From Prochlorococcus sp. AG-402-N08 (lineage in GTDB: Bacteria > Cyanobacteriota > Cyanobacteriia > PCC-6307 > Cyanobiaceae), in assembly GCA_003216535.1 (NCBI GenBank), contig QCIS01000002.1, forward strand, positions 157,774-221,773: a DNA stretch of 64,000 bases, read 5' to 3'. The notes beneath the pieces were generated by a model. The model saw only the letters and a list, made by a program, of their open reading frames with translations. It made no database searches and had not been told where the DNA came from. The position numbers and the translations under genes are program-made. This document shows positions 39,021 through 63,105 of this stretch, piece by piece. Numbering within the stretch: position 1 is the first letter of the stretch; each line of letters opens with the position of its first letter.

Positions 39021-39143
39021 TTTTTTAAATTAATGCAATATTGTTTGGCATTAAATAAATTAAAAGATATCTTGTGAGTAGATTTTATCTATTTAAAAAT
39101 ATCTTATTTCAATCCTATTGATAGGCAACAATTAGGTCCTAGA

Positions 39144-39953
39144 TTGTTGATTAAGTTCCTTCAAGACGCCGCAGGGAAAGGTGAGCTTGATCCATGGGAT
39201 ATTGATGTAATAAGTGTAATTGATAGTTTTTTGGAGCAATACGCACATACTTTCAATAGATCTTCAAATAGTCAAATCACATATCAAAAGGATTTGGCTG
39301 AGACAAGTGAAGCATTTTTTGCGGCTTCTGTACTAGTTAATTTAAAGGCCCAGGTTTTAGAATCTGATGTTTTTAAAGAAAATTCTTCAGATTTTGAAGA
39401 TGAATTTGATTTGGATGATCAAGATTGGATTGATAAAGAATTTGATATTCCAAAATATCCTGAAAAATATCTGCGGAGAAGATCAATTGCACAACCAATT
39501 CTTAAACGTACAACAACATTGGGAGAACTTGTAAGTCAGTTAGAGTCAATAGCAGAAGTTATAGAAACCCAAGATCTTCTGCTCATGAAGAGAAAAAGAA
39601 ATAAAAAATATTCTGATAAGGCTCTAATTTCTCAAGTAAAATCATTAGCACATCGCGAGAAACTTCCAGAAACCACTAAAGCATTAGGGAAATTTATTAA
39701 TGAATGGGAAAAAACATTACAATGGACAGATTTTGAATATTTAGTCAAGAAATGGCAAACAGTTGTAAAAAATGATTTAGATAAAGATCGTTTGGGAGTT
39801 TTTTGGGCTTTGTTATTTTTATCATCTGAAAACAAAATTGAAATTAAACAAATTAATTCCTTATATGGTCCAATTCAAATTAAAAGAATAATACCTGATG
39901 GTGGCGTAGCTCAATTGCCTATAGAAAATCTTGAGGTAAGTAATGCTTCTTGA
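39144..39953 (+). CDS. scpA: segregation/condensation protein A
   Basis: GELDPWDIDV, AASVLVNLKA, TTLGELV, VFWALLFL. Confidence 0.85.
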   Translation: MLIKFLQDAAGKGELDPWDIDVISVIDSFLEQYAHTFNRSSNSQITYQKDLAETSEAFFAASVLVNLKAQVLESDVFKENSSDFEDEFDLDDQDWIDKEFDIPKYPEKYLRRRSIAQPILKRTTTLGELVSQLESIAEVIETQDLLLMKRKRNKKYSDKALISQVKSLAHREKLPETTKALGKFINEWEKTLQWTDFEYLVKKWQTVVKNDLDKDRLGVFWALLFLSSENKIEIKQINSLYGPIQIKRIIPDGGVAQLPIENLEVSNAS

Positions 39954-40012
39954 TCAGCTGCTTAGAAGCTTAATAGTAATAACGTATAATTTAGAAAAAT
40001 GATTTTGAAATT

Positions 40013-41191
40013 ATGAAGGCAATGATACTTGCGGCAGGTAAAGGCACACGTGTTCAGCCTATTACTCATATTATTCCGAAACCGATGATTCCGATTTTGC
40101 AAAAACCTGTAATGGAGTTTCTCTTGGAACTTTTAAGGGAACATAACTTTAAGGAAATAATGGTAAATGTTTCTCATCTGGCTGAAGAAATTGAAAATTA
40201 TTTTAGGGATGGGCAAAGATTTGGAGTAGAGATTGCTTATAGTTTTGAGGGAAGAATTGAAGATGGAGAATTAATAGGTGATGCTTTAGGATCCGCAGGA
40301 GGATTAAAAAAAATTCAAGATTTTCAAAATTTTTTTGATGAAACTTTTGTTGTTTTATGTGGTGATGCTTTAGTTGATTTAGATTTAACTCAAGCTGTTA
40401 AAAAACATAAGCAGAAAGGAGCTATTGCGAGCTTAATCACAAAGAAGGTAACTAAAGATCAAGTATCAAGTTACGGTGTTGTAGTTTCAGATGAAAATGG
40501 ACGAATAAAGGCTTTTCAGGAAAAGCCATCAGTTGATCAAGCTTTAAGCGACTCTATAAATACAGGAATTTATCTTTTCGAACCCGAAATTTTTAATTAC
40601 ATACCTTCAGCAGAGAAATTTGATATTGGAGCGGATCTTTTCCCTAAACTTGTTGAAATGGATTTACCATTTTTTGCATTACCAATGGATTTTGAATGGG
40701 TAGATATTGGAAAAGTTCCTGATTATTGGAGTGCTATTAGAAATGTATTAAAAGGTAAGGTACGACAAGTGCAAATACCAGGTAAGGAAATTAAACCAGG
40801 AGTTTTTACAGGATTGAATGTTGCGGCTAACTGGGAAAAAGTTAATATAACAGGACCTGTTTATATAGGAGGCATGACTAGGATAGAGGATGGAGCAACT
40901 ATTATTGGCCCTTCCATGATTGGACCAAGTTGTTGCATTTGTGAGGGAGCAACTATAGATAACTCAATTATTTTTGATTATTCTAAAATTGGTAAAGGTG
41001 TAAGGCTTATGGATAAATTAGTGTTTGGTAAATATTGTGTTGGGAAAAATGGAGATCATTTTGATTTGCAAGATGCCTCTTTAGATTGGTTAATAGCAGA
41101 TTCAAGAAGATCTGATTTAACTGAGCCATCACCTCAGCAGAAAGCTATGGCAGAATTATTAGGTACTGATTTGATTAATATTCCAGATTAA
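40013..41191 (+). CDS. NDP-sugar synthase, CugP-like (UDP-glucose pyrophosphorylase / mannose-1-P guanylyltransferase family)
   Basis: MILAAGKGTRV, PKPMIP, FQEKP, C-terminal hexapeptide repeats. Confidence 0.85.
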   Translation: MKAMILAAGKGTRVQPITHIIPKPMIPILQKPVMEFLLELLREHNFKEIMVNVSHLAEEIENYFRDGQRFGVEIAYSFEGRIEDGELIGDALGSAGGLKKIQDFQNFFDETFVVLCGDALVDLDLTQAVKKHKQKGAIASLITKKVTKDQVSSYGVVVSDENGRIKAFQEKPSVDQALSDSINTGIYLFEPEIFNYIPSAEKFDIGADLFPKLVEMDLPFFALPMDFEWVDIGKVPDYWSAIRNVLKGKVRQVQIPGKEIKPGVFTGLNVAANWEKVNITGPVYIGGMTRIEDGATIIGPSMIGPSCCICEGATIDNSIIFDYSKIGKGVRLMDKLVFGKYCVGKNGDHFDLQDASLDWLIADSRRSDLTEPSPQQKAMAELLGTDLINIPD

Positions 41192-42065
41192 GATCAGCTT
41201 TTTCAATAATCTCAGGAATTAAATGCTCTGCCTTTACGGCCATTAGATGCACACCATTTGCAATATTAATAAAATCATGAGCTTGTTCAGCTGCAATTTT
41301 AATACCTTCCTGTAAAGGGTCTTTTGCATCTTTCAGACGATTTAAGATATTTTCAGGGATATATGCCCCTGGAACGTATTTGTTAATAAAGAGAGCGTTT
41401 TTGTAAGACTTTAATAGGAATACTCCTGCAATTACAGGAATTTCAAGAGGATTGGTAATTTTTTTGCAAAATTCTATCAAATTTTGTTTTTCCATAACCA
41501 TTTGAGTTTGTATAAATCCAGCTCCAGCCTCTTTTTTCTTTCTCATTCTATTTTCTAAACTTCTTTGATTTCTGCAACTAGGATCAGCTGCCGCACCTGC
41601 AAAAATAAATGTTTTTTTATCGGAAAGTTCTCCTAGAGTAGGATCAATTCCTTTATTGAAAGCTTGAATTTGTTGAAGCAATCTAACTGACTCAAACTCA
41701 TGTACTGCCTTAGCATCTTGTTGATCCCCTGCTTTTACTGAATCACCAGTAATGCATAAAATGTTTCTAATTCCTAAAGCATTTGCTCCCAGAATGTCAG
41801 ATTGTAAAGCAATTTTATTACGATCTCTGCAAGATATTTGCATTACTGGTTCTATTCCATTTTCCAGTAATAGTTTGGACATTGCCAAGCTGCACATTCT
41901 CATTACAGCTCTGCTTCCGTCAGTAATGTTAACAGCATGTACCTTATCTTTCAAAAGTTGTGCTATCTTAAGAGATCTTATGGGGTTTCCACCTCTTGGC
42001 GGCATTAACTCTGCCGTTATTACCTTAGATTTTTTTTCTAAAGTCTGCTGAAGTTTTGATTTCAA
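41175..42065 (-). CDS. metF: methylenetetrahydrofolate reductase
   Basis: AELMPPRG, NITDG, CRDRN, LCITGD, FIQTQMV. Confidence 0.92.
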   Translation of the reverse strand: MKSKLQQTLEKKSKVITAELMPPRGGNPIRSLKIAQLLKDKVHAVNITDGSRAVMRMCSLAMSKLLLENGIEPVMQISCRDRNKIALQSDILGANALGIRNILCITGDSVKAGDQQDAKAVHEFESVRLLQQIQAFNKGIDPTLGELSDKKTFIFAGAAADPSCRNQRSLENRMRKKKEAGAGFIQTQMVMEKQNLIEFCKKITNPLEIPVIAGVFLLKSYKNALFINKYVPGAYIPENILNRLKDAKDPLQEGIKIAAEQAHDFINIANGVHLMAVKAEHLIPEIIEKADLNLEY

Positions 42066-42142
42066 TTGCTTTTGTTTCCTTGTTGGTTAACAAGTGTACT
42101 GAGATTGCTAAACTTTATTAATATAAAAAAGGAACTGTTTAA

Positions 42143-42421
42143 ATGCAAATGGTTGAAGAAGAAGTAAACAACATTGATATGATGGGTCTCTCTGCTAGAG
42201 AGATGGAAATCATTGATCTCGTAGCTGATGGGCTCACTAATCAAGAAATTGCGGTAAAACTAACTATCAGTAAAAGAACTGTTGATAATCATGTAAGTAA
42301 TATGTTTACAAAAACTGGCTCTAAAAACAGAGTAGCACTTTTGAATTGGGCAATGGACAACGGAAAGATTTGTAGAGATGGATTTAATTGTTGTTCACTC
42401 CCAGACTCTGATCAAGATTAG
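42143..42421 (+). CDS. standalone LuxR-type HTH regulator with Cys-rich tail (PedR-like)
   Basis: LSAREMEIIDLVADGLTNQEIA..L.IS.RTV.NH, tail KICRDGFNCC. Confidence 0.85.
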   Translation: MQMVEEEVNNIDMMGLSAREMEIIDLVADGLTNQEIAVKLTISKRTVDNHVSNMFTKTGSKNRVALLNWAMDNGKICRDGFNCCSLPDSDQD

Positions 42422-42572
42422 TATTAACTTTTTCTTTTTTTGTATCGTTAGCCAAATCCATTAAACAATAATTTGTAGAACCTAATTCGAAGAGTTCAGC
42501 ATATGCAATACATGTATCTTTGTCTGAATCAACAAATCTCAATATTCCTTCCTTGTCGTAAAGACCATACAT
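42384..42572 (-). CDS. small hypothetical protein
   Basis: 62 aa ATG ORF filling the gap between the LuxR gene and the CYTH gene; overlaps LuxR convergently by 38 nt. Confidence 0.55.
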   Translation of the reverse strand: MYGLYDKEGILRFVDSDKDTCIAYAELFELGSTNYCLMDLANDTKKEKVNTNLDQSLGVNNN

Positions 42573-42617
42573 GTGGAGAAAAATAAAAATAACTTTACTT
42601 AAATATAAAGAAAATAT

Positions 42618-42637
42618 AAAGGATGAGTGGCTCCTTT
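42618..42637 (-). terminator. possible terminator hairpin downstream of the CYTH gene
   Basis: AAAGGA-N8-TCCTTT inverted repeat 2 nt after the stop, followed on the minus strand by an A/T-rich run. Confidence 0.35.
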
Positions 42638-42639
42638 GA

Positions 42640-43137
42640 CTAGTTACTTTTAAAAGTTGTCAAATAGTCTTCTTTCCATTCTGAAAAAGGATTCTTAGCG
42701 AGACTGAAATTGGAGTAATGGGTCAGCCCAGTAATTTCTTTTGAAATGAAAGATGGAAGAAATAAATCTTCCTCTTCATTGGAAAGTTCAATTTCTGCAA
42801 TTACGAGTGGATAATTATTTTCTTTAAAGCAATCTATAATCCAAGATTTTTTTTCAACTTCTAAAAAGAATCTTTCTTTTTTAATTGTACTTGAAAGATT
42901 TGACATTATTGTTTCAGCATCGTTTCGCGGAATGGAGTATTCAAATTCAAAGTTGGTAAAGCCTTTGATATGTTTTTTGAGCGCAATTTTAGAGTCTTTC
43001 CCTGTAAACCTTAATCTTATAATCCAACCATCTAAACTTTTGGATAAATATCCTTGTTCAATATAAATTTTTTTAGTTATGAATTCTTTCCAATTATCAT
43101 TTTTTATAAGAAATCTTCTTTCTATTTCTAAGGCCAT
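42640..43137 (-). CDS. CYTH domain protein
   Basis: EIERRFL, IEQGY, IRLR, EFEY, KERF, AEIE. Confidence 0.9.
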   Translation of the reverse strand: MALEIERRFLIKNDNWKEFITKKIYIEQGYLSKSLDGWIIRLRFTGKDSKIALKKHIKGFTNFEFEYSIPRNDAETIMSNLSSTIKKERFFLEVEKKSWIIDCFKENNYPLVIAEIELSNEEEDLFLPSFISKEITGLTHYSNFSLAKNPFSEWKEDYLTTFKSN

Positions 43138-44049
43138 TTAGTTGTTTGGATTTTTTTGAGATAAATCACCTTTCCAATCTAGTTTTTTTATTAAGGTATT
43201 ATAGTAATTAGTGCTTTTTTTAAACTTTATTATTTTGCAGGGTGATTGCCCTTTTTTGATCTCACAATAATAATTCTCCTTAATAGTCATACATTTTGAA
43301 CCGTCTCTCCATAATTTAATTTCTCCTTTACTTTTTTTTACAGGTTTAATTATTACCTTACTTGTATTAGGTATAACTATTGGTCTACTAGCCAAACTCA
43401 TCGGGCATATAGGGTTAATTATCATTGCATCAATGCTGGGGTGCACTATTGGACCACCTGCAGCCATTGAGTAGGCAGTTGAACCAGTAGATGTAGATAT
43501 GATTAATCCATCACCTTTATATTCATTGACTTTCTCGTTATCTATTTCAATTTGTATTTGGTTGGTAGGAGAAATGTCTTCTTCAATAGATTTAAAATAA
43601 AAATCATTTAAGGCGTCGTAGCTTTTTATAATTTTTTTCTCAGAAGTTGTCCCATTAATACAAACATTACAATTTAATCTATTACGAAAGTCAATTGTAT
43701 ATTCTTCTTTTTCAAGAATTTCAATAAAAGATTTGTCAAACAAAAAATCTTTTTCTTGCGTAAGGAATCCTAGATTACCACCAATATTGATGCTCAACAA
43801 AGGAACATCATAATCAGCTAAAGCATTTGCACATTTTAGGAAGGTTCCATCCCCACCAAGAACTATGCCAATATTTGGTGGTAATTCTGGATTACAAAAA
43901 TGTTTTTCAATTTCATCTTTATGAAAATCACTTTCAATTCTTTTTGATTTTATATTTTTAGCTTTAAGGACTTCTTCGCAGAATTTAGAAGCCTCTTGAG
44001 CTATAAAACTATTTGAACGATATACAATAAGCACTAATGAAAGTTTCAT
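43138..44049 (-). CDS. NAD(+) kinase
   Basis: [38 protein letters not shown]. Confidence 0.95.
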
Positions 44050-44058
44050 TTAGTGGTT

Positions 44059-44379
44059 TTACCATTTTAATAAATTAAAACTTTCCATATCTACAGTCAC
44101 CCTATTTCTGTAAAGAGATAATAATATAGCTAATCCAACAGCTGCTTCTGCGGCAGCAACAGTGATAACAAAAATGGTAAAAACTTGTCCTTGAATTAAA
44201 TTATTATCAATATAGGAAGAAAATGCCATCAAGTTTATATTTACTGCATTGAGCATTAATTCAATGCTCATGAGAACTCTGACTGCATTTCTGCTATTTA
44301 ATAATCCCCAAATACCAATACAGAATAGTGCTGAAGATACTATTAAATAGGCTTGAATAGGAATTGATTCTAAACTCAT
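44059..44379 (-). CDS. ndhE: NDH-1 subunit 4L (E)
   Basis: [28 protein letters not shown]. Confidence 0.95.
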
Positions 44380-44397
44380 AATAAGAAAGTTGAAAGG

Positions 44398-44997
44398 TTA
44401 ATTTTTATTGGTAAGTAGTGGTTCTGAAGATTTTTCAATTAACTCTTGATCAACAGGTAATCCAGTGGAAATATCCTTGGTCATTACATCTCTTCTAGCT
44501 AAAACAATAGCCCCAATCATTGCCATTAAAAGTAAAACTGAAGCCAATTCAAATGGGAGTAAATAATCACTAAATAGATGTTCACCAATTCTGATAGTTG
44601 ATTCTTCTCCTATTGAGTTTTGAGGACTTGATAGGCTCCATACATTGGTCAAGTCAACTCTTATTAAGAGGCTTAGTAGGGTTAAGCATATTGATGTTGA
44701 TATTATTCTTCTCGATTTAATGTCATTAATAGGTTTTAAATCTTCTTTTTTATTGACTAACATTATTGCAAAAATTATTAATACATTAACTGCACCCACA
44801 TAAACTAAAACTTGTGCTGCAGCCACAAAACTTGCATTTAAAAGAAGATATAATCCTGCCACACTCATGAAAACCCCCCCTAGAAGAAAGGCTGAATAAA
44901 CAATACTTTCGAGCAATACAACACCAAGTGCTCCAATAAGGATAATTAAAGAAAGAACTGTAAAACAAATAATTTGAGTTGTTATTGCAATGGACAT
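44398..44997 (-). CDS. ndhG: NDH-1 subunit 6 (G)
   Basis: QVLVYVGAVNVL, YLLPFELAS, GAIVLARR. Confidence 0.95.
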   Translation of the reverse strand: MSIAITTQIICFTVLSLIILIGALGVVLLESIVYSAFLLGGVFMSVAGLYLLLNASFVAAAQVLVYVGAVNVLIIFAIMLVNKKEDLKPINDIKSRRIISTSICLTLLSLLIRVDLTNVWSLSSPQNSIGEESTIRIGEHLFSDYLLPFELASVLLLMAMIGAIVLARRDVMTKDISTGLPVDQELIEKSSEPLLTNKN

Positions 44998-45010
44998 AAA
45001 TTAATGGAAA

Positions 45011-45637
45011 TTAATTGCTTGGATTAGAAACTTTATCATTATTTTCATTGGATACAGGTTTCATCCAATCATAAACTTCTTCCGGTAATTTACCAACTCT
45101 AGTATCTGAAGCAGGGATTTCATGAGGGTCCATGACACCTTTAGGAAGATAGGCAAGTTCTCTTAGAGGTTTAACTGAGGGATCTGTTGTTACGTTTGTA
45201 GGTAACCTGCCAAGTGCAACATTATCAAAATTTAGATTGTGTCTGTCAAAAGTAGCTAATTCGTATTCTTCTGTCATTGATAGACAATTAGTTGGGCAAT
45301 ATTCAACGCAATTTCCGCAAAATATACAAACTCCGAAATCTATTGAATAATTTCTAAGTTCCTTTTTTTTGGTTTCTTTATTCATTACCCAATCGACTAC
45401 TGGAAGATTAATGGGACATACTCTCACACAAACTTCACAAGCGATACATTTATCGAATTCATAATGTATTCTTCCTCTATATCTTTCAGAGGGTATTAAT
45501 TTTTCATACGGGTATTGGACAGTAACAGGTCTTCTTCGAAGATGATCAAAAGTAACTGATAAACCATTATATAAATATTTGCCAGCATTAAATGCTTCTT
45601 TGATATAGCTATTTATTTGTTGAAGGAAATTTTTCAT
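45011..45637 (-). CDS. ndhI: NDH-1 subunit I
   Basis: [12 protein letters not shown] and [12 protein letters not shown] 4Fe-4S motifs. Confidence 0.95.
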
Positions 45638-45704
45638 TTGAAGAATTTACTTAGTTATTTTATTTTAGTGGATTAATTTTAAATTTAAGTATTTTTACTT
45701 AAGT

Positions 45705-46823
45705 TTAACCACCAAAGAATTGTGGAAAAGCAAGTTTTAATCCTGCAGTTATCAAAAGATTAGCAAGAGAAATTGGAAGAAGAAACTTCCATCCTAGATC
45801 TAATAGTTGATCTATTCTTACTCTAGGAGTTGTCCAACGCAATAATATTGCAATGAAAACTAAAAGATATGCTTTCAATACAGTCATTACAATTCCTATT
45901 GATGCAGTGAAAACTTGTATGAAGGGTGCATCAATTGGCAAATTTAGAAACTTAGCTATTAATTCAACTGGAATAGGAAAACCCCATCCTCCCAAATAAA
46001 GTATTGATACCAATAAAGCTGAAAGTATTAAATTAATGTAACTACCAAGGTAGAACAATGCGAATTTCATCCCTGCATATTCAGTTTGATATCCTGCAAC
46101 TAATTCTTCTTCAGCTTCAGGTAAGTCAAATGGAAGTCTCTCACATTCTGCAAGAGCGCAAATCCAAAAAACTATAAAACCAACTGGTTGTCTCCATATA
46201 TTCCAACTTAGGATTCCAGCACCACTTTGTTGGTTGACAATATCAATAGTACTTAGAGAATTTGTCATTAGTACGATAGCTAGTACAGATAAAGCTAAAG
46301 GAATTTCATAACTTATTGATTGAGCTGCTGCTCTTAAACCTCCTAATAAAGAATATTTATTATTTGATGCATATCCGCTCATAAGAAGTCCAATTGGCTG
46401 GATACTGCTTAAAGAGATCCATAGAAAAATTCCAATACCAACATTACTTATTAAAAGGTTTTGTCCAAAAGGAACTATTAGCCAGGAGAGAATCACTGGG
46501 ACAAGAACTAATATAGGTCCTGCAGTGAAGAGAATTCCATCCGCTTTAGCGGGAATAATATCCTCTTTGACAAGTAACTTAAGACCATCTGCAATTGGTT
46601 GAAGGACGCCAAGCGCTCCTGCATATTCGGGACCAATTCTTTGTTGAGCAGCAGCAGATATTTTTCTTTCAAGCCAAACTGTTACTAAGACCCCAACAAC
46701 TGCCGCTACTAAAACCAAAAGCATAGGTAGAGGCAGCCAAATTATATGAGCGATATCACTAGAAATGCCAAAACCTTTTAAGAATTCATTGAAACTATAT
46801 TCGAGATCTAATCCGTAATCCAA
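45705..46823 (-). CDS. ndhA: NDH-1 subunit 1 (A)
   Basis: [38 protein letters not shown]. Confidence 0.95.
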
Positions 46824-46898
46824 AATTTTTGTGTTATTTACTTAATACATTAACTCTTCACAAACAATATGTGTGTTTTTTATGAAAAGCTGCAAATA

Positions 46899-48044
46899 TT
46901 ATTTTCTATTATCTACGCTGATCCAATCTCTTGGTGATGAACCAGTATAGATTTGAGATGGTCTAAAAATTCTATTTGCGCCAAGTTGCTCTCTCCAATG
47001 AGCTAACCAACCTGCAACTCTAGAAATGGCAAAAATTGGAGTAAATAAATCGCGAGGAATACCAAGTTTTCTATATACAAGACCTGAATAAAAGTCCACG
47101 TTAGGGAATATACCCTTAGGGCCAAGTCTTGGTATTGCCTGTGCCTCTAGTGATTTAGCAACTTCATACATTTCATCTGCTCCAAATCTAATAAAAAGCT
47201 CTTCTGCCAGCTTTTGAAGAATAATTGCTCTTGGATCTTTGACTTTATATTCCCTATGACCGAAGCCCATTATTTTACTTTTATTTTTTATCGCGTTATC
47301 TAAAAAAGAAGCAGCATTTTCTGGCGTTTTGATTTCTTCTAACATTGCAATCACATCTTCATTCGCTCCTCCATGAAGCGGGCCAGCAAGGGTACCTACT
47401 GCGGATGCGATGACAGCATATGGGTCTGTAAGAGTGCTTGCAGTCACTCTAGCGCTAAATGTACTCGCGTTTAAACTATGTTCAGCATGTAGTATTAAAC
47501 ACCTATCAAAAACTTTTGCAGCTATAGGATCTTGCTCTTTTTCAGTCAGCATGTAAAGAAAATTTGATGAGTAAGTTAAATCATCACGAGGTTGAATAGG
47601 GTCTTGTCCTTTTCTAATAAGTTGAAAAGCAGCAATCATAGTGGGTATTTTTGCTATTAGTCTTATCACTGCGTTGTAGATGTAATTAGGATCATCTATT
47701 GCTCTACGTGAATAAAAAAGCCCCAAAGAAGCTGCGCTAGATTGAAGAGCGTCCATAGGATGACCTGTCGCAGGGAAACATTTCATCATATCTCTGACTC
47801 TAAAACTTAATCTTCGATGCATCTGAACTTCTTGTTCAAAATCTCTAAGTTGAATAGCTGTGGGTAATTCACCCCAAATCAATAGGTAAGCAGTTTCTAA
47901 AAAACTACTTTTTTTGGATAGTTCCTCAATGGAGTACCCTCTGTACAATAATTTACCTTTGTTGCCGTCAATATCACAGATAGATGAATTTGTAACTGGT
48001 ACACCCTCTAATCCTGGTTTTAAAATTAGTTTCTTACTATCCAA
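46899..48044 (-). CDS. gltA: citrate synthase
   Basis: GLEGV, HAEHSLNAST, GPLHGGANE, GFGHREY, PNVDFYSG. Confidence 0.96.
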   Translation of the reverse strand: MDSKKLILKPGLEGVPVTNSSICDIDGNKGKLLYRGYSIEELSKKSSFLETAYLLIWGELPTAIQLRDFEQEVQMHRRLSFRVRDMMKCFPATGHPMDALQSSAASLGLFYSRRAIDDPNYIYNAVIRLIAKIPTMIAAFQLIRKGQDPIQPRDDLTYSSNFLYMLTEKEQDPIAAKVFDRCLILHAEHSLNASTFSARVTASTLTDPYAVIASAVGTLAGPLHGGANEDVIAMLEEIKTPENAASFLDNAIKNKSKIMGFGHREYKVKDPRAIILQKLAEELFIRFGADEMYEVAKSLEAQAIPRLGPKGIFPNVDFYSGLVYRKLGIPRDLFTPIFAISRVAGWLAHWREQLGANRIFRPSQIYTGSSPRDWISVDNRK

Positions 48045-48168
48045 TTGCTTAATTCAATATCAAATACTTATAGATTAAACATAGTCAAATAATTTTTAAT
48101 TAACCACAAGATATTAACTTCAAAAAATTAAAATGATTGAGGTTGAAGCTTGTTTGAATAAATTTAAT

Positions 48169-48591
48169 TTAAAGAATTTTTAATATTGTTTTTGTATAAA
48201 GAATTGGATTTTTTTCGGGAATAGTTTGTCTTATGATTTCTAGCGATTCTTCATTTGATATTTTTAAAATATTTCTAATGAGAAAATTAAGGTCCTGCAA
48301 ATTAGAAAAATATTCAATTTTATTAGAATTACCATCTTTGATATCAACTTTTGAATAAAGAAAAGCAGATTTATCTTTATTATTTTTTAGGTTAAAAAAT
48401 TTTTTTGATATTTTCTCTAGTTTCTTACCATCAATTAAATAATTACTTATGGTTTGTAAATCTCCTGATTCTATTGAATAGATATTTTCATAAGTTAATT
48501 GTTTTATAACATCGTCTTTTTCTTCAAGAATATCTTTGGAATATATCGAATAGATATCTTCATTTTGTTTCAAAGTATATTTGTTAAAATC
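48169..48591 (-). pseudogene. 3' fragment of a hypothetical gene, apparently 5'-truncated at the junction
   Basis: Frame is open from GAT at 48591-48589 ([12 protein letters not shown]...) with no ATG. The upstream TAA (48594-48592) lies inside mnmE-derived sequence. Confidence 0.6.
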
Positions 48592-48594
48592 TTA
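48585..48594. other. probable rearrangement (inversion) breakpoint
   Basis: Both divergent reading frames are closed by stops within the same 10 nt, with no room for promoters or ribosome-binding sites. Confidence 0.8.
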
Positions 48595-49280
48595 TAGGTA
48601 AAACAAATGTTGGTAAAAGCTCTTTATTAAATTTGCTTGCAAAAAAAGAGAAAGCAATCGTAACTAATATTCCTGGAACAACTAGAGATGTTATTGAAGT
48701 TAATTTAACTATTAATGATATTCCAATGAAAATAATTGATACTGCTGGCATAAGAGAAACTCATGAACAAATTGAAAGTATTGGAATTAAAAAAAGTTTT
48801 GGGAAAATAAAAGAGTCAGATTTTATAATTTATATTTATAGTCTTGAAGAAGGATTTAATGAAGAAGACAAAAAAATAATGCAAGAAATTCCCAAAGAAA
48901 AATTAATTACTATTTTGGGAAATAAAAAAGATTTAATTGATTGCAAAAATATTAATTCAAATGAGTTAAAAAACACAATTCTTATGAGTATTAAGAATAA
49001 TGATGGTGAAAGATTATTAATAGACACAATTATAAAAAAATGCGGATTAAAACAAGTAGAAAATATCAATATATTTTTAAACGAAAGACATCTAACAAAT
49101 TTGTCTGCTTGCTTATCTAATTTAAATGATACTGATGAAATAATTGAAAATAAATTGCCATTTGATTTGTTATCAATTGAGCTGAGAGATGGAATTCAAA
49201 ACTTATCTAAAATAACTGGTCAAGAATTAACAGAGGAACTTCTAGATAATATTTTTTCTAAGTTTTGTATTGGTAAATAA
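48591..49280 (+). pseudogene. mnmE: 3' half of tRNA modification GTPase MnmE/TrmE; N-terminal half missing
   Basis: In frame from 48591: [14 protein letters not shown] (G1), [20 protein letters not shown], terminal FCIGK. In-frame TAA at 48585-48587. Confidence 0.92.
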
Positions 49281-49362
49281 ATTTGAGTTAAATTACATAG
49301 TGATATATAGTTGATTCTCTAACTTCAGTTGAATTTTTATTAATTAATTATTTCTTAGTTTA

Positions 49363-50229
49363 GTGGATTTAAATACTCCAATAATAAGTAAAATCATTGA
49401 TAATTGGATCGATGAAGATATAGGTAGGGGAGATCTTACAAGTTCCTCTATTACAGAAGAAAATGGTAATGCATATTGGATTGCAAAAGAAGAGGGTATA
49501 TTCTGCGGGGTTGAAATTATAAAAGAAATTTTTAGAAAAATTGATTTAAAAATCAGTCCAAAATTTAATATCTCTGATGGAGATCAATTTGTTAAAGATC
49601 AAAAACTCTTAGAAATATATGGGCCTTCAAAAAGTTTGCTAGCTAGTGAAAGAATAAGCTTAAATATAGCAATGCATTTATCTGGAATATCAACATACAC
49701 AAAGAATCTTGTAAATAAGTTAGAAGGTACAAATATAAAATTAGCAGATACTAGGAAAACGACTCCTGGCTTAAGAATATTTGAAAAATATGCATTCAAA
49801 TGCGGAGGTGGAGTCAATCATAGAATGGGATTATACGATGCAGCTATGATAAAAGAAAATCACATTGCATGGACAGATAATCTTAATAATGCGGTAAAAA
49901 AAATTCGACTAAATTCGCCTTTTACAACACATATCATAATTGAAGCTGAGAATATCGAACAGGCAAAAGAAGCAGTATTAGCAGGAGCAGATAGTGTCTT
50001 ATTGGATGAACTTAGCCCTGAAATAATCAAAAAAAATGTTCAAGAATTAAGAGATTTATCAATGAATAGCTTAAAAAAAGAAGTAAATAAAAATTTGATA
50101 ATAGAAGTTTCTGGAATTAACCCTGAAGAAATTAGTAAATATCTAATAAAAGGTATTGATTTGATTTCAACAAGTTCTTCAATTACCAAAAGTAATTGGA
50201 TTGATTTAAGTATGCGTTATATTAATTAA
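49363..50229 (+). CDS. nadC: quinolinate phosphoribosyltransferase
   Basis: EDIGRGDLT, DTRKTTPGLR, HRMGL.D..MIKENH. Confidence 0.95.
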   Translation: MDLNTPIISKIIDNWIDEDIGRGDLTSSSITEENGNAYWIAKEEGIFCGVEIIKEIFRKIDLKISPKFNISDGDQFVKDQKLLEIYGPSKSLLASERISLNIAMHLSGISTYTKNLVNKLEGTNIKLADTRKTTPGLRIFEKYAFKCGGGVNHRMGLYDAAMIKENHIAWTDNLNNAVKKIRLNSPFTTHIIIEAENIEQAKEAVLAGADSVLLDELSPEIIKKNVQELRDLSMNSLKKEVNKNLIIEVSGINPEEISKYLIKGIDLISTSSSITKSNWIDLSMRYIN

Positions 50230-50256
50230 TTATATAGATAAATAATTGAATAATTA

Positions 50257-52071
50257 ATGCTAATCATTTTTAAAGAATTAACAAAACACTTTGAACAAGC
50301 TCTTTTAGATAGTCTTGAAAAAAATAATAAAAAAGGAGAATTCGAAAATCTTAAAAAAAATTTAATTACACAATCATCAAAAGAAGAGTTTGGTGATTAT
50401 CAATGTAATGTTTGTTTAAGTTTATCTAAAATATATAAAAAGAAACCAAGAGAAATCTCTGATGATTTTGTTAATCTTTTAAATAAAAATAAAAGCATAT
50501 TAAAATTATGCAAGAGTCTAGAAATAGCAGGACCTGGATTCATAAATATAAGATTAAAAGATGAAATTCTAATAAATGAAATCAAATCAAATATTCAATG
50601 CCAAAGGGCTGGCATACCTCTAATTAAAAAAAATTTAGATAGTGGTTTATCTAATAAAGTTATAGTAGATTTTTCTAGTCCTAATATTGCTAAAGAAATG
50701 CATGTGGGGCATTTAAGATCAACAATAATAGGGGACTCAATATCTAGAATTTTCGAGTTAAGAGGTTATGAAGTATTAAGACTCAATCATGTTGGTGATT
50801 GGGGAACACAATTTGGAATGCTGATTACTCAGCTCAAAGATTTATATTCAAATGATCTAGAAGAAATAGGAAAGATCAAAATAAGTGATTTAGTTGAATT
50901 TTATAAAGCATCAAAAAAAAGATTTGATAATGAATCTGAATTCCAACAAAGATCTAGGGAGGAAGTAGTAAAATTACAAAGTGGAGATTGTAACTCGATA
51001 GAAGCCTGGAAATTGTTATGTGATCAATCTAGAAAGGAATTTGATGAAATCTATAAAAATTTAAAAATAAAAATAAAAGAGAGAGGTGAATCTTTTTATA
51101 ATCCATTCTTAAAGTCTGTTATTGAGGATTTGAAATTTAAAAAAATACTCATAGAAGACCAAGGAGCAAAATGTGTATTTTTAGATGGTATGACTAATAA
51201 AGAAGGCAAACCTTTACCGCTAATTATTCAAAAAAAAGATGGCGGTTTTAATTATGCCACCACAGATCTTGCTGCTATAAGATATCGATTCAATAAAGCT
51301 CCTAATGGGGATGATGCTTCAAGAATTATTTATGTAACTGATCATGGACAAGCAAATCATTTTGCTGGAGTTTTTCAAGTTGCAAAAAAAGCAAAATGGA
51401 TCCCAGATAATTGTCAAGTAGACCATGTCCCTTTTGGGTTAGTTCAAGGAATTGATGGCAAAAAACTAAAGACAAGAGAAGGTAAAACAATACGGTTAAA
51501 AGATTTATTAAAAGAAGCTGTCAGAAGAGCAAAAGAAGATTTATCGAAAAGATTAGAAGATGAAGATCGTTACGAGAACGAAGAATTTATTGCAAATACT
51601 TCAAGAATTATTGGATTAGGCGCTGTTAAGTATGCAGATTTAAGTCAAAATAGGATTACTAATTATCAATTTAGTTTTGATAAAATGCTTTCCCTTAATG
51701 GAAATACTGCTCCTTATTTGTTATATACACTTGTAAGAATTTTAGGAATTAAAAGAAAAAATGATTTTGTTTATGACTCTAAAGATTTTCAATACATTAA
51801 TTATGATAATAAATCTGAGTGGAAACTTATCAAAAAATTACTTAAGTTCGATGAAGTCATAATCTCTATTGAAAAAGACTTAATGCCAAATAGACTATGC
51901 AATTATCTGTTCGAGCTATGTCAGACTTTTAATAGATTCTATGATCAAGTTCCAATCCTCAAAGAAGAAAAAAATATAAAAATTTCTAGACTTAATTTAT
52001 GTGACCTAACTGCAAAAACACTAAAATTAAGCTTAGAGCTTCTAGGAATTGAAACTTTAGAAAGAATGTAA
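50257..52071 (+). CDS. argS: arginyl-tRNA synthetase
   Basis: [50 protein letters not shown]. Confidence 0.96.
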
Positions 52072-53180
52072 TGAATGATTTTGATCCATTAAAAAATCTT
52101 TTCCCAAAACCAAGAGAAGAAATAATAAATATGCAATCTTACTCTGCACCTTTAGAAAATAGAAGAAATTTACTCCGCTTAGACTTTAATGAAAATACTT
52201 TAGGTCCTAGTCCTAAGGTTTTAGAGGCATTACAAGCGATAAAATTAGATGAGATTTCAATTTATCCAGAATATAATTTTTTAAAAAAATTCTTATCTGA
52301 TAAATATCTCGATTCAAGAAAATTTGATATTGATGAAATAGGAATTTTCAATGGAGCAGATGCAGCGATAAATGCAATTTTCAATTGCTTTGGAGAAAAA
52401 GATCAAATATTTCTAACCACAAATCCAACTTTTGGTTACTATTCTCCTTGTGCAGAAATGCGAGGAATGAAGAAAATAAGTTGTTCTTACGTTGGAGAAA
52501 ATTTTCTATTCCCCATCGAAGAATTTAGGAAAAAAATAATAAAGCATAATCCAAAGTTAATATTTATTTGTAATCCAAATAATCCAACAGGAACAGTTTT
52601 AAGCTCCCAAGAGATAATTAACTTAGCTAATATCAAACACGATTCATTAATAATTGTTGATGAACTATATGAAAAATTTAGTGGAGATAGTCTTCTTGAA
52701 TCGATAGATTTTGAAAAGACTAAAAATATACTAATAATCCAATCTCTTTCAAAAACTGCAGGTTTAGCTGGATTAAGAATAGGTTTTACTTTTGGTAATA
52801 AAAGTTTAATTCAGTACATTAATAAAGTTACAGGACCATATGATGTAAATAGCTTTGCTATAACAGCAGCATTAGCTGCACTTAAAGACAAATCATATAT
52901 TGATAAGTATGTTTTGGAAGTAAAAAAAGCAAGGGAATGGATTTTAAATAAATTTAAATCAACAATAATCAGAACTCACTTTAGTGGAGGTAATTATTTC
53001 TTAATTTGGCCAAAAAAAGATTCTAAAATTTTAATACAAGAGATGAGACAAAAAGGAATTCTTATTAGAAGTATGGAAAACAAAAAAGATATTGGTAAGT
53101 CAATAAGGGTTAGTATTGGAACTAAAGAACAAATGATTTTTTTCTGGGAAAATTACAAGTTATTAGATTTAAAAAATTAA
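52071..53180 (+). CDS. hisC: class I/II PLP aminotransferase, histidinol-phosphate type
   Basis: LDFNEN, CNPNNPTG, VDELY, SLSKTAGLAGLRIG. Confidence 0.8.
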   Translation: MNDFDPLKNLFPKPREEIINMQSYSAPLENRRNLLRLDFNENTLGPSPKVLEALQAIKLDEISIYPEYNFLKKFLSDKYLDSRKFDIDEIGIFNGADAAINAIFNCFGEKDQIFLTTNPTFGYYSPCAEMRGMKKISCSYVGENFLFPIEEFRKKIIKHNPKLIFICNPNNPTGTVLSSQEIINLANIKHDSLIIVDELYEKFSGDSLLESIDFEKTKNILIIQSLSKTAGLAGLRIGFTFGNKSLIQYINKVTGPYDVNSFAITAALAALKDKSYIDKYVLEVKKAREWILNKFKSTIIRTHFSGGNYFLIWPKKDSKILIQEMRQKGILIRSMENKKDIGKSIRVSIGTKEQMIFFWENYKLLDLKN

Positions 53181-53902
53181 TTACCGAAGATATAAATTGT
53201 ATTTTGATCTATTCTTTTAGGTTTTATTTGAAAATCTTTTCCAACATACTTTACTTTAAAATCTTTCATATTTTCGATAAATAAATCAGCATTTGAGAAA
53301 TCACATTCTTTATTAATTCTTTTGCCACTTGCAAAGTGAACAGGAATAACTAAATTAGGTTTTAAGATCTTAGCTATTCTTGAGGCTTCTTCCCCATCGT
53401 AAGATTTTATTCCTCCTCCAATGGAAATAAATAAGATATCTGGGCGAGACAAAATAATTTGACTATTAATATCAATATCACCAGCAGCTCCTCCCATATG
53501 AACAATTTTAAGATCATTCTGCTCCCAACTCCAAACAGTTGCCATCCCAAATCTTCTTCCCTCTACTCTGTCATGTGGTACAGAAATTCCATTTAATAAA
53601 ATATCCTCAAATTGATAGATTCCTGGCTCAACAAACATTAATTGATCATTTGGGTTATATCCTTCGTCTGGAAGCCTAGAACTAGCCAAAATAAAATCTA
53701 CGTTGACTTCTTTTGGCTCCTCTAAATTACTTGCACAACCTATTGCTTTAAACGGATTTATAAGAATAGATTTTTCTGCACTATTAATTAAAAAACTACC
53801 ATGTCCCAAACTTTTTATTACTAAATTCCTTGCCAATAATGAGGTAGGTAAAAAGGAGCTAAAGAATATAAAAAAGAAAATATTTTTAATTTGAGAAATC
53901 AT
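53177..53902 (-). CDS. metallo-beta-lactamase-fold protein with degenerate metal motif
   Basis: SLGHGSFLI, INPF, VPHD, VHMG, IPVH. Confidence 0.8.
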   Translation of the reverse strand: MISQIKNIFFFIFFSSFLPTSLLARNLVIKSLGHGSFLINSAEKSILINPFKAIGCASNLEEPKEVNVDFILASSRLPDEGYNPNDQLMFVEPGIYQFEDILLNGISVPHDRVEGRRFGMATVWSWEQNDLKIVHMGGAAGDIDINSQIILSRPDILFISIGGGIKSYDGEEASRIAKILKPNLVIPVHFASGKRINKECDFSNADLFIENMKDFKVKYVGKDFQIKPKRIDQNTIYIFGN

Positions 53903-53922
53903 AAAATTAATTTTTTAGTATT

Positions 53923-54519
53923 TTACTTTTGTTCAGCCATTTTTAGAAAATTACTAATTAATTTATGACCAAATTGTGTTAAAACACTTTCAGGATGGAA
54001 CTGTACCCCATGTAAATGTTTATATTCTTTGTGAGAGATAGCCATAATAGTTGATTCTTCTAAAGTCGCAGTTATCTCAAAACAAGATGGTAAAGAACTT
54101 GAATCAACTATAAGACTATGGTATCTTGTCGCAACAAATGGAGAATCGATATCTTTAAATAATCCTTTTTGATTATGAAATATTTTAGATGTCTTACCAT
54201 GCATAAGTTCTTTCCCAACTACAACCTTACCTCCAAAAGCCTGAGCCAAAGCTTGATGACCTAAACAAACTCCTAATATCGGAATATTTTTAGATAATTT
54301 TTTTAGTATTGGCAGACAAATTCCAGATTGATCTGGATTCCCAGGACCTGGAGATAATAGGATACCACTAGGGTTTAGTTTGATAATTTCTTCTAAAGTG
54401 ATTTCATCATTTCTTTTTACTATTAATTCTTTAGTTATTTCATGCTCAACAGAAAGTTCTCCTAAATATTGAACAAGGTTGTAAGTAAAACTATCGTAAT
54501 TATCAATAACAAGAAACAT
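53923..54519 (-). CDS. anthranilate/aminodeoxychorismate synthase component II (TrpG/PabA)
   Basis: IDNYDSFTYNL, SPGPG, GVCLGHQ, RYHS, QFHPES. Confidence 0.93.
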   Translation of the reverse strand: MFLVIDNYDSFTYNLVQYLGELSVEHEITKELIVKRNDEITLEEIIKLNPSGILLSPGPGNPDQSGICLPILKKLSKNIPILGVCLGHQALAQAFGGKVVVGKELMHGKTSKIFHNQKGLFKDIDSPFVATRYHSLIVDSSSLPSCFEITATLEESTIMAISHKEYKHLHGVQFHPESVLTQFGHKLISNFLKMAEQK

Positions 54520-54531
54520 ATTTATATAGAT

Positions 54532-54942
54532 TTAAAATAACAACTTTATTTTAGGAACAAAGATATATACAGCAATAATAACAGAATGAATTGAAGCTAA
54601 TAATACAGCTCCTGAAGAAGTATCTTTTGAAATTTTAGCCAAACTACTAAATTCTCTTTTCACAACTAAATCAACTATTGATTCAATAGATGTGTTTAAT
54701 ATTTCTAATATTAAAACAGACATAATTGTGGCAATCAGAATTACAAAATCACTTAGACTAATTTGTAGTGAAAAACCAATTATTAAACATGTAACTGCAA
54801 AAATTAATTGAATTTTAAAATTTCTTGAAGTTTTTAATACGTAACTAATTCCACTGAAAGCATATTTAAAACTTTTTAATACATTACTAGAAGTTTTGTA
54901 TGATTCTTTTCTATTTTCTAAAGAGTGTAATTTTTTTTCCAT
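54532..54942 (-). CDS. dgkA: diacylglycerol/undecaprenol kinase family protein
   Basis: SFKYAFSGI, EILNTSIESIVD, AKISKD.SSGAV. Confidence 0.85.
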   Translation of the reverse strand: MEKKLHSLENRKESYKTSSNVLKSFKYAFSGISYVLKTSRNFKIQLIFAVTCLIIGFSLQISLSDFVILIATIMSVLILEILNTSIESIVDLVVKREFSSLAKISKDTSSGAVLLASIHSVIIAVYIFVPKIKLLF

Positions 54943-54948
54943 AGATTT

Positions 54949-55488
54949 TTAATCTAATCGAGTAATTAAATATTCCTGAAAATTTAACATATTTTCCAAA
55001 TCAAAATCATTATTATGTTCCCATCCCAAAAGATGTAAAAATCCATGACTAGCCAACCAGAGCATCTCTCTATAGATTGAATGTTTATATTCATAAGATT
55101 GCTCAAGTGCCATCTCAAATGATATAAATATATCTCCCAACTCTATGTGATCAAAATTATTTAGAGATTCATCAGAAATGATTGGAAAAGATAGAACATC
55201 AGTTGGACCATTTTTTTGCATCCACTTTTTGTTCATAGAAGCAATTTCTTTATTAGAAATTATCTGTAAACCTAATGAAAAAGATTTTTTTTCAAAAATA
55301 AAATTTGGCAATTGATAATCGTCTTTTTTTAATATCGTATTTATCCAAGATAAAAAAACTTTCTCCCAAAAAATAGATTCAAAAATAAGTTTTGTTTTAG
55401 TATCTTTTAACTTATTTAAAAATTGAGAAAAATCATCACATTGAAAAACCAAATCTAAATTTATTTCAGAAATAATTTTTTCTTTCAT
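54949..55488 (-). CDS. ybeY: rRNA maturation RNase YbeY
   Basis: [27 protein letters not shown]. Confidence 0.93.
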
Positions 55489-55494
55489 ACATTC

Positions 55495-55677
55495 TTATAC
55501 AGGGATATTGGGCTTACCTATTGTGGCCACAAGTATTAATATCCCAATTAACACTAGAAAGGTTATTAAAAAATGAGAAATACTTTTTGAACCCTTCCTT
55601 ACCATATTTCTCATAGCAAGCTTTATAAAGCTTGGAGGAGCAACTTTTTTTTTAAAATTTTCGTTTTTATTTTCCAT
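55495..55677 (-). CDS. DUF3285-like small membrane protein
   Basis: PPSFIKLAMRNMVRKG followed by one TM helix. Confidence 0.75.
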   Translation of the reverse strand: MENKNENFKKKVAPPSFIKLAMRNMVRKGSKSISHFLITFLVLIGILILVATIGKPNIPV

Positions 55678-55695
55678 TAGTTATTAAATAGATTC

Positions 55696-56803
55696 TTAAG
55701 AAGAAATATTCATGCGTAATAATTCATGAATAAATGGTTCAAGTCCACCATCTAAAACACTATCTAAGTCGTTGGTCTCCTGCATAGTCCTAAGATCTTT
55801 TACCATTTGATAGGGATGGAAAACATAATTTCTTATTTGATTGCCCCATGCAGCTTCCACAATATCACCTTTAATATCAGCGACTTCTGCAGCTCGTTGT
55901 TCTTTAGCAATCACTAATAGTTTAGACTTAAGAAGTAACATAGCTTTTTCTTTATTTTGTAATTGAGATCTTTCTTGGGTGCATCTTACTGAAATCCCTG
56001 AAGGCAAATGAACAATTCTTACTGCTGTTTCTACTTTATTAACATTTTGTCCTCCAGCTCCACCAGATCTACTAGTGGTAATTTCTAAATCTTTTTCAGG
56101 TATATCAAGTGAAATATTGTCATCTAATTTTGGCATAACTTCCACCCCAGCAAAGCTGGTTTGTCTTTTGCCATTAGCGTTGAAAGGAGAAATTCTTACT
56201 AATCTATGAGTTCCTTTTTCATGTTGCAAATAGCCGTATGCATATTTTCCATCAATTTCAAACGTTACACTTTTAATACCTGCTTCTTCTCCTTGAGATA
56301 AATCATTGATGATAAGGCGCATTTGATTATTATCGGCCCATCTTGAATACATTCTCAATAATATCTCTACCCAATCCTGTGCATCTGTTCCACCCGCACC
56401 TGCGTTAATAGAAACTACTGCTCCTTCCTTATCGTATTCACCACATAACAATCTTTCAAATTCCCATTTATCTAAATTCTCTCTTAATTTCTTTAAGCCC
56501 TGCTGGGATTCCAAAATCATATCCTCTGCAGGTTCTAAAGAATAAAGTTCAAGAGAGGCAATAGCATCGGAAATAAAAGTTTTCCATTTATCTAATAATT
56601 CGAGTTGTGCTTTGACATCATCAAGGATTAACATTTGTTTTCTAGCTTCTTCTTGATTCTCCCAAAATTCAGGCTGAGCAGAAATTTGCTCTAACTCTCG
56701 CCTTTGCGCTTTTAATCTTGGAACGTCAAAGACAATCCTGAGCATTACCCAGGCGCTCTGTAAGTTCTGAAAGATCTTTTTTGAAATCTGTAATATCTAT
56801 CAA
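55696..56803 (-). CDS. prfB: peptide chain release factor 2 with programmed +1 frameshift
   Basis: 25-codon first frame from TTG 56803 ends CTT-TGA-C at 56731-56725; the second frame carries SPF and GGQ motifs. Confidence 0.95.
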
Positions 56804-56879
56804 AATAGAATTTAATCGTTATTTATAATCTAACAAGCACTTTTATTTAATAGTATAAACTAAGTATTATTTTAAAAAA

Positions 56880-57134
56880 ATGTCCAAAGTTGAAATTTAT
56901 ACTTGGCAATATTGCCCATTCTGTATTCGAGCAAAATCTCTACTCAAGAAAAAAAATATTAATTTTACAGAATATAAAATAGATGGCGATGAAGATGCCA
57001 GAACATTGATGACTGACAGGGCTGATGGTAGAAGAACATTACCGCAAATATTTATAGATAATGAGGGTATCGGAGGATGCGATGATCTCTACAAGTTAGA
57101 AAATGAAAATAAATTAGACGCATTATTAATCTAG
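56880..57134 (+). CDS. grxC: glutaredoxin 3
   Basis: CPFC, TLPQIFI, IGGCDDL. Confidence 0.93.
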
Positions 57135-57139
57135 ATCTT

Positions 57140-58063
57140 ATGAAATTTCTATTCGTAATAGATCCAATAAAAAATATTAATCCCTTAAAAGATTCATCTG
57201 CTGCTTTAATGCAAGCATCATCAAAAAAAAATATTGAAATATGGAGTTGTACTCCTCAAGACCTTGAAGCTAGAGGTGATGATGTATGGGCATCTTCCGT
57301 ACAAGTTGAAGTAAATCCATGGATTTCTTTCAAAGAAAATGATTGCATACCTCTCGCTGAATTTAATTGCATTTGGATGAGAAAAGATCCTCCTGTAAAT
57401 GAGGCTTATTTATATGCAACCCATCTTTTAGAAGTTGCCGAAAGAAAAGGTGTAAAAGTAATTAACAAGCCTTCATCTTTAAGAGCATGGAATGAAAAGC
57501 TAGGTGCCTTGAGATACAGCCACTTAATGGCACCTACAATAGTTGCGAGTAAAGTAAAAGACCTTATTAATTTTGCAAATATAAATCATGAAGTAGTCAT
57601 AAAACCTCTCGGAGGAAAAGGTGGTCAAGGGGTTATAAGGATAAATAAAAATTCTCCAGGAATTAAATCAATCATTGAATTAATTACTTCTCAAGAAGAA
57701 TTACCCGTTATGATGCAAAAATTCATTCCTGAAGTCATAGAGGGTGATAAAAGAATAATCATCGTAAATGGCGAAGCAATTGGATCTATAAATAGGATTC
57801 CTCAAGGAGGAGATTTTAGGAGTAATTTAGCTATGGGAGGAAAGGCTGAACCAACATCATTAACAGAAAAAGAAAAAAGTATCTGCTCAGATTTATCTCA
57901 ACACTTCAAAGATGAAGGTTTATTTTTTGTGGGTATTGATGTAATAAATGGAATGCTCAGCGAGATTAATGTAACAAGTCCAACAGGTTTAAGAGAAATA
58001 GAAAATTTATCCAATAAGAATGTTTCAGACGAAGTTATTGAAAAATTAGTGGAAATTATCTAG
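57140..58063 (+). CDS. gshB: glutathione synthetase
   Basis: [34 protein letters not shown]. Confidence 0.95.
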
Positions 58064-59468
58064 GATTTTTAGCGAAAAATATTTGTTTTACTATAGATTC
58101 AAGTTTTAATTTAATCTCATCTATTTCTTTCTCTAAAACAGATCCTGAAACTATACCTGAACCGGCAGTAAATTCAATATTTTCTTCAATATATCTTGCG
58201 CCTCTTATTGCTAAAAGAAATGAAGCATTTCCTGATTCATCAACCCAACCCATTGGCGAAGCATAATTCCCTCTAGGAAAAGACTCAAGAGTGTTTATCC
58301 AATTCAATGCTGCATTTTTTGGGTATCCACAAACAGCAGGAGATGGATGTAGATTTTTCAGCAATTCAAAAGGACATATGTTTTCAACTTTAGAGAAAAT
58401 GAGTGTTTGCAAATGAGAAATATCTCCAAATGAATTCACCTTGATATCACTTTTTTTAAAGTTTGTTATGTTTAAAACTTCTAAACATTGAATTAAGTAA
58501 TGTATTACATAATTATGTTCCTTTAAGTCTTTAGTACTTTTTAGGAGTTTCTTAAAATTTGAATTAGTTAAGATAGTTCCAGCAAGAGCTTCCAAAGTTA
58601 AATTAGGTTTAGTAAAAGAAAATAATTTTTCTGGAGATGCTCCAAACAAAATATCCTTGCTATTCCTTTTCCAAACGTATCTGCATGTATTTGGTTGATT
58701 CTTTTTTAATCTTTTTAAAATTTCTACTAAATCTAATTTATTTTTAAGTTTTATTTTAATCCTATTTGCTAAAACTATCTTTTCGAGGATACCTTTCTCT
58801 ACTAATTGAATTCCTCTATTTACTACTTTTTTCAAATTTGTATTAGAAGTTTCTAATGAGTTTAAGAAATCATCAATAATAGGAAAATCAAAACTAGTTT
58901 TTAAGCTAGATAATTTCATTAATTCTGAGCCAGAATTAATAACTTGATTTCTAATTGCCCATATTTCTTCAATTAATGTTCTTAATGATGATTTACCTTC
59001 AACATGACCATTGATTCTTAACCAGCAATTCTTACCACTTTTAATAATTAATATTTTTGGTAAGATGGCTTCCAAACTAGGAACATCTGAAGATAAATTC
59101 TTATTATTCAAATTTTCAGAAAAAGAAAATAAATAAATAATTTTTGAAAGTGCAGAATTATGTGATTCATCAGTTAAGTTAATTAAATTTTTAAAATTCT
59201 CAGAATTAAACTCTTTTGCTAGATCAAATCTTTTTGGACCATCCAAAGTAACATATTTACATTTCTCGAAAGCAATATATGAAATACCATCAGATTCCTC
59301 CCAAAATGAAGAAAACGGATATTTATTTATAAACAATTCATATACTTGAAATAAATCAATACAAGGAATCTCAACACAAATACTTACTAATCCAGAATTT
59401 TCCACTTTCTTATCGAAAGCGGAAAATACATCTTTTAAAAAATCTGTTAAGTTTAAATCATTTTTCAT
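58056..59468 (-). CDS. menF: isochorismate synthase
   Basis: [36 protein letters not shown]. Confidence 0.9.
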
Positions 59469-59570
59469 TACTTATTGAAAATAACTAAAAATCATGCAAT
59501 AAAGTAAAAAATGTAACTCAATTTATAAACTACATTTAATAATTATCGAATTTTGTGTGTTAATTAAAAA

Positions 59571-62649: not shown

Positions 62650-62652
62650 TAA

Positions 62653-63105
<453 letters not shown>

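Follow-up and report, generated by a model that had tools for sequence, protein, structure and literature searches.

Back-to-back truncation of mnmE and a hypothetical gene in a Prochlorococcus contig, most probably an inverted chimera of single-cell amplification

Two gene fragments joined without a spacer

The window analysed here, a stretch of 64,000 nucleotides, belongs to the high-light clade of Prochlorococcus and contains, 48 kb in, a junction at which two genes have both lost their 5′ parts; the contig that carries it is 224,895 bp long. At 48591-48593 the 3′ part of mnmE, on the plus strand, abuts the 3′ part of a hypothetical gene, on the minus strand, with a spacer of 0 bp, as read from the sequence and its translation. 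The two truncated genes overlap by 3 bases, and no intergenic DNA lies between the fragments. The back-to-back truncation is a definite fact of the sequence rather than a statistical pattern. An earlier, sequence-only reading of this DNA had reported that both genes lose their 5′ parts at the same base and without a spacer, and sequence, translation and tblastn all agree with it.

The mnmE fragment (48591-49280, plus strand) comprises codons 232-460 and the stop codon, i.e. the last 229 codons of the gene, and covers the G domain from the G1 motif onwards as well as the C-terminal helical part ending in CIGK. Following a TAA at 48585-48587, its frame is open through the G1 motif to the stop at 49278-49280. 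Pfam matches were obtained to MMR_HSR1 and to the C-terminal part of MnmE_helical. The TrmE_N domain gave no Pfam match in the fragment and the start codon is likewise missing, and tblastn with full-length relatives showed that the window encodes only residues ~232-460 of the 460 of MnmE. The fragment of the hypothetical gene (48169-48591, minus strand) comprises codons 347-486 and the stop codon, its first 346 codons and start being absent. From a TAA at 48594-48592 the frame runs open for 140 codons to the stop at 48169-48171, beyond which lies gltA (46899-48044, minus strand). No Pfam match was found for this fragment, and only residues 347-486 of the 486-aa protein are encoded in the window according to tblastn. 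The same tblastn comparisons found neither missing half, of mnmE or of the hypothetical gene, anywhere within the 64 kb.

In nearly all related genomes the full-length homologues of this protein measure 486 aa, and the N-terminus of the native protein is hydrophobic, resembling a signal peptide or membrane anchor. The gene, located between rhodanese/trpB and gltA, belongs to no Pfam family, is quite variable (81-93% identity) and by its sequence would encode an uncharacterised, clade-wide protein of the envelope type. Two of its homologues from short metagenome contigs, P0181 and P0182, contain internal duplications and reach 568 and 405 aa, respectively; these probably reflect misassembly of a variable gene of low complexity.

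The join was resolved by comparison with both parental arrangements. The left parent, metagenome contig L091, was retrieved via a homologue of the hypothetical-gene fragment and reads TTTGTTGAAATCTTTTAGTTTTTTCAAAGCAC across the site, and the mnmE parent, represented by L001 and others, reads ATATCCATTGCGCTTATAGGTAAAAC. Homology to the hypothetical gene reaches 48593, or 48597 if one mismatch is accepted, and homology to mnmE begins at 48591. The sole stretch identical in both parents is a CTT at 48591-48593 (window sequence TTTGTTAAAATCTTATAGGTAAAAC). Aligned on these three bases, the window reads TTTGTTAAAAT-CTT-ATAGGTAAAAC, the hypothetical-gene parent TTTGTTGAAAT-CTT-TTAGTTTTTTCAAAGCAC and the mnmE parent ATATCCATTGCG-CTT-ATAGGTAAAAC. 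The intact mnmE gene reads ...GGAATATCCATTGCG before the breakpoint and CTTATAGGTAAAAC... after it, and the intact hypothetical gene, in the orientation of the window, ...TTGTTRAAATCTTTTAG before and TTTTTTCAAAGCAC... after; the uninterrupted parental sequences spanning the two breakpoints are ...CCATTGCGCTTATAGG... and ...AAATCTTTTAGTTTTTTC....

The CTT match extends to 48597 in the form CTT[A/T]TAG, with agreement at 6 of 7 bases, the A at 48594 being the base of the mnmE parent. A perfect 7-bp microhomology, hinted at by the first alignment to a metagenome contig, was rejected since direct comparison reveals the mismatch at 48594. The hypothetical-gene parent cannot have carried an A at this position, as it would place a stop codon in the gene. 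Only with the A of the mnmE parent at 48594, in place of T, does the hypothetical-gene frame acquire its closing upstream TAA (48592-48594, minus strand; CTA AAA to CTA TAA). The mnmE frame is closed upstream by a TAA (48585-48587, plus strand) composed of antisense sequence of the hypothetical gene. The microhomology had previously been placed around AATCTT; the comparison of the parents corrects this to CTT, or to CTT[A/T]TAG at 6/7. Around the junction, no flanking repeat longer than chance AT-rich matches was detected, and no IS element or recombinase gene was found near it, as had been noted from the sequence alone.

Gene order on the two sides of the junction

The left block (38069-48590, minus strand) contains ppnK, ndhE, ndhG, ndhI, ndhA, gltA and the 3′ part of the hypothetical gene in standard order, and is collinear with positions 20633-10103 of L091 at 94.2% identity. 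The right block (48591-64000, plus strand) is inverted relative to the left one and consists of the mnmE 3′ part, nadC, argS, a hisC-like gene, lactamase_B, GATase, DAGK, ybeY, DUF3285, prfB, grx, gshB, menF, menA, menC, menE, a thioesterase gene and ndhH, the last cut by the end of the window. In L091 the order is menE, thioesterase, ndhH, rsmH, ..., trpB, rhodanese, hypothetical gene, gltA, ndhA/I/G/E, ppnK. Chaining the window with the loci L001-L010 and L091 gives the standard order as mnmE, nadC, argS, hisC-like, ..., prfB, grx, gshB, menF, menA, menC, menE, thioesterase, ndhH, rsmH, ..., trpB, rhodanese, hypothetical, gltA, ndhA/I/G/E, ppnK. A single ordinary contig, L091, matches the two sides of the window in opposite orientations, with 38069-48597 in reverse and 62177-64000 forward (L091 1-1825), and everything to the right of the junction is inverted with respect to the order standard in high-light Prochlorococcus. 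The gene order from gltA to mnmE that the sequence-only reading had put forward is the correct one, as seen in L001-L010 and L091, and the reversal of order and orientation that it described is equally evident from the opposed matches to L091. In L091 itself, a long-read, pilon-polished metagenome contig, both the hypothetical gene and gltA are split by frameshifts at ~10000-10040, which have the look of assembly-specific sequencing errors and not of biology.

For the right side, NadC and the MnmE fragment served to retrieve 90 related loci, which are 90-97% identical to it in nucleotide sequence; NadC is present in 804 blocks, from which the longest contigs were taken. All 90 are collinear with the right block as far as each locus extends (at most ~11.6 kb, near window position 60,230), and each has DUF2062 and spoT ahead of mnmE. 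Collinearity was found for 12750-33415 with L115, for 38069-48597 with L091, from 48598 to ~60,230 with the 90 loci and for 62177-64000 with L091, and 48591 is the only structural break seen where references are available.

The layout is exactly that of one end of an inversion, which is how it had been interpreted. In the standard arrangement the two breakpoints are separated by 23.7 kb, and any reciprocal junction would therefore lie near window coordinate 72,280, ~8.3 kb beyond the end of the window; the geometry of L091 thus agrees with the earlier placement of the partner breakpoint past 64000. The predicted sequence of the reciprocal junction is CCATTGCGCTTTTAGTTTTTTCAAAGC (also given as ...CCATTGCGCTTTTAGTTTTTTCAAAGCAC...).

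The junction in other sequence data

The junction string occurs in none of the 90 related loci, and the exact parental mnmE string is present in 65 of them. In each of the 89 loci that could be evaluated, no stop codon interrupts the mnmE frame over at least 234 codons ahead of G1; the 90th ends at a contig edge. Likewise, no contig from eight deep marine metagenomes spans the junction: pieces matching the left side end at 48590-48597 and continue as TTTTTTCAAAGC..., and pieces matching the right side begin at 48590/48591 and are preceded by ...CCATTGCG (also given as ...GGAATATCCATTGCG). Among JGI metagenome contigs the junction had 0 matches, against 13 for a matched parental control, and in a 31-mer index the junction-spanning 31-mers were present in no public run. 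The junction is private to this assembly.

Many gene calls of 215 aa representing the C-terminus of MnmE are found in metagenomes. The ten that were examined break elsewhere, through frameshifts, runs of N or contig ends, and a natural breakage hotspot within mnmE was rejected because 10 of 10 contigs examined carry the parental sequence at the site. Another truncated mnmE was observed in locus L105 (5493-6000; ENA metagenome contig NODE_1333, 11.4 kb), in which homology starts only from about codon 98 (L105 5559, equivalent to L001 8829). Its upstream neighbourhood is unrelated, containing an amino-acid ABC transporter, a XerC-like integrase, rpsB, tsf, pyrH and frr, and its breakpoint differs from that of the window; it is probably a chimera of metagenome assembly.

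A search for proteins combining the two genes in the manner of the reciprocal junction returned no such hybrid, with the list complete at E ≤ 1e-60 on the MnmE side and covering the best 120 of 675 on the side of the hypothetical protein, and none of the matches listed came from the 224,895-bp contig. The top scorers of this search, P0181 and P0182, were rejected as hybrids on account of their internal duplications.

Sequence conservation of the mnmE fragment

The mnmE fragment has a pN/pS of 0.12 and a single private residue in comparison with 90 orthologues; argS and the hisC-like gene, its intact neighbours, have six private residues each. To judge by these substitutions, the fragment has evolved as a pseudogene for practically no time, so that the event must be very fresh, unless it is not biological at all. 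The sole private change is in codon 97 of the fragment (48876-48878), where the window has Met and all 90 relatives have Ile (KKIMQEIP vs KKIIQEIP).

Nature of the template

All 15 window proteins that were checked are listed as "NCBI, Logan" (one as "NCBI" alone), and none is in nr or UniRef. This pattern matches that of known single-cell contigs, whereas isolates instead have WP_ and UniRef entries. A Logan contig found via RpaB, SRR7040944_6 (locus L116; 12,245 bp), is 100.000% identical to window positions 13192-25436, and run SRR7040944 is almost certainly the read set of the source itself. The accession number and date of this run would be compatible with SRP141175, the large data set of Prochlorococcus single cells. 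The template thus looks like an amplified single-cell genome in an unannotated assembly. Genomes of the large Prochlorococcus single-cell data set were amplified by MDA or WGA-X and assembled with SPAdes --sc, and in benchmark cultures this workflow gave 1.5 misassemblies per 100 kb (PMC6122165; PMC11247762), which corresponds to about one per 64-kb window.

The exact ORFs of 134 aa and 215 aa that arise from the junction are also listed from Logan. As each of them requires the stop codon upstream at the junction, a second assembler appears to have crossed it as well. If so, the chimeric molecule would be abundant in the reads, and the join would not be a scaffolding error.

Origin of the junction

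In combination, these observations make it most likely that the junction is an inverted chimera formed by MDA or WGA during single-cell amplification. The proposed amplification and priming would account for what is directly observed, namely the anatomy of the join, its uniqueness and the fragments without decay. One Prochlorococcus cell would have been amplified by MDA or WGA-X, and a growing or displaced 3′ end terminating in ...AAAATCTT, within the hypothetical gene, would have annealed via CTT (and TAG past one mismatch) to a displaced mnmE strand 23.7 kb away on the same chromosome. Extension from the annealed 3′ end would then join the two loci head to head, and the chimeric product, if amplified early enough to dominate local coverage, would have passed into the assembly. 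Coverage of amplified single cells is very uneven, so that the chimeric path could outweigh the true continuations and the assembler would walk through it. In the real cell, mnmE and the hypothetical gene would both be intact and in standard order.

The published features of such chimeras largely correspond to the present case. Among 475 MDA chimeras, 85% were inverted and 76.8% had at least 2 bp of complementarity, with a range up to 21 (Lasken & Stockwell 2007, PMC1855051). As in that collection, segments of one chromosome are here joined in inverted orientation, as established with L091 and the 90 loci, the intervening sequence is skipped, no mobile element is involved and only a few bases are complementary (3 bp perfect, 6/7 overall, within the range of 2-21 nt). 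The spacing differs: the join sites of inverted chimeras were <10 kb apart in 337 of 406 and >10 kb apart in 69 of 406 (PMC1855051), so that 23.7 kb is allowed yet atypical and falls in the minority class, in which complementarity is also rarer (34.8%; PMC1855051). Also to be counted against an amplification chimera are the position of the junction deep in a 224,895-bp contig and the requirement that the chimeric path dominate the reads, as it seems to do locally. Inverted MDA chimeras are nevertheless known to contaminate single-cell assemblies. Inversion misassemblies reported for SPAdes in the SCGC single-cell benchmark (PMC6122165, PMC11247762) similarly switch strand and locus with respect to all references and lack a repeat; the difference is that the membership of the present source in that workflow is presumed from its database pattern and run number.

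A real and very recent inversion of 23.7 kb in this cell or lineage, by illegitimate recombination at inverted CTT(A/T)TAG and with inactivation of both genes, appears unlikely. It would explain the inversion-like layout, the microhomology at the join, the location deep within a long contig and the seeming reproduction of the junction when Logan assembled the same reads. Microhomology-mediated illegitimate recombination underlying bacterial inversions resembles the present case in its intragenic breakpoint, in the few inverted identical bases and in the lack of a recombinase or IS element. However, it requires a reciprocal junction and no parental junctions, and it would normally be met in more than one cell; the population data oppose it. 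The junction was not encountered in independent genomes, metagenomes or runs (90 loci, eight metagenomes, JGI contigs, 31-mer index), and no reciprocal hybrid ORF was found at the depth given above (MnmE side complete to E ≤ 1e-60, best 120 of 675 on the hypothetical side). The inversion would moreover destroy mnmE, a gene intact in 89 of 89 evaluable relatives, and the absence of any sign of relaxed selection would require it to be practically new. By our own rough prior, a fresh gene-killing rearrangement in a wild cell would be far rarer than the published misassemblies of single cells. The site also lies in the core backbone, whereas the rearrangements so far described in Prochlorococcus concentrate around genomic islands (PMC6102989). 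That we are looking at a wild cell just after a spontaneous inversion of 23.7 kb at a 3-7 bp microhomology, with mnmE and the envelope-type hypothetical gene lost together, is a shade more doubtful still. Of the earlier interpretation, the geometry of an inversion end consequently stands and a biological inversion is improbable. The "probable large inversion" lacks support, given a private junction, an undecayed mnmE fragment, no reciprocal product among the protein matches listed and a source that looks single-cell. The fallback offered with it, an MDA or assembly chimera, explains the data better.

Any other artefact, such as a chimera of library preparation or a mis-join by assembler or scaffolder at a short shared word, we regard as very improbable. 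The restriction of the junction to this assembly would fit, as would an assembler mode tolerant of uneven coverage if the source belongs to the data set above. However, the 3 shared bases (6/7) are far below any assembly k-mer, which renders a mis-join in the graph implausible unless chimeric reads exist; chimeras from library preparation are infrequent and would lose out to the true path, and the same ORFs apparently recur in a second assembly of the reads.

Finally, a native arrangement, i.e. a naturally split mnmE or an old rearrangement shared by the clade, has nothing beyond the sequence itself in its favour and is effectively excluded by the reference loci: the N-terminal half of mnmE is absent from the window by tblastn, an intact 460-aa mnmE lies beside DUF2062 and spoT in 89 of 89 evaluable relatives (90-97% identity), the examined 215-aa C-terminal calls are all on metagenome contigs that are parental at the site, and the fragment is under purifying selection equal to that of intact genes. 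References with a natively split mnmE at the same adjacency, which the sequence-only reading had named as the finding that would overturn an inversion, were not found, mnmE being intact in all 89 evaluable loci.

Implications

Should the junction be real, it would represent an inversion private to one cell, very recent and probably harmful, and thereby a direct snapshot of structural mutation in a natural population. That would amount to minor evidence on how structural mutations arise spontaneously in a streamlined genome, rather than to a new biological system. As an artefact, which the amplification chimera favoured here would be, it would mean that the contig is misjoined at 48591, and synteny or pangenome studies should not count the junction as a rearrangement. 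Two core genes truncated back-to-back, with nothing between them, would furthermore be a useful flag of chimeras in single-cell assemblies, and neither mnmE nor the 486-aa hypothetical gene should be scored as lost from this Prochlorococcus.
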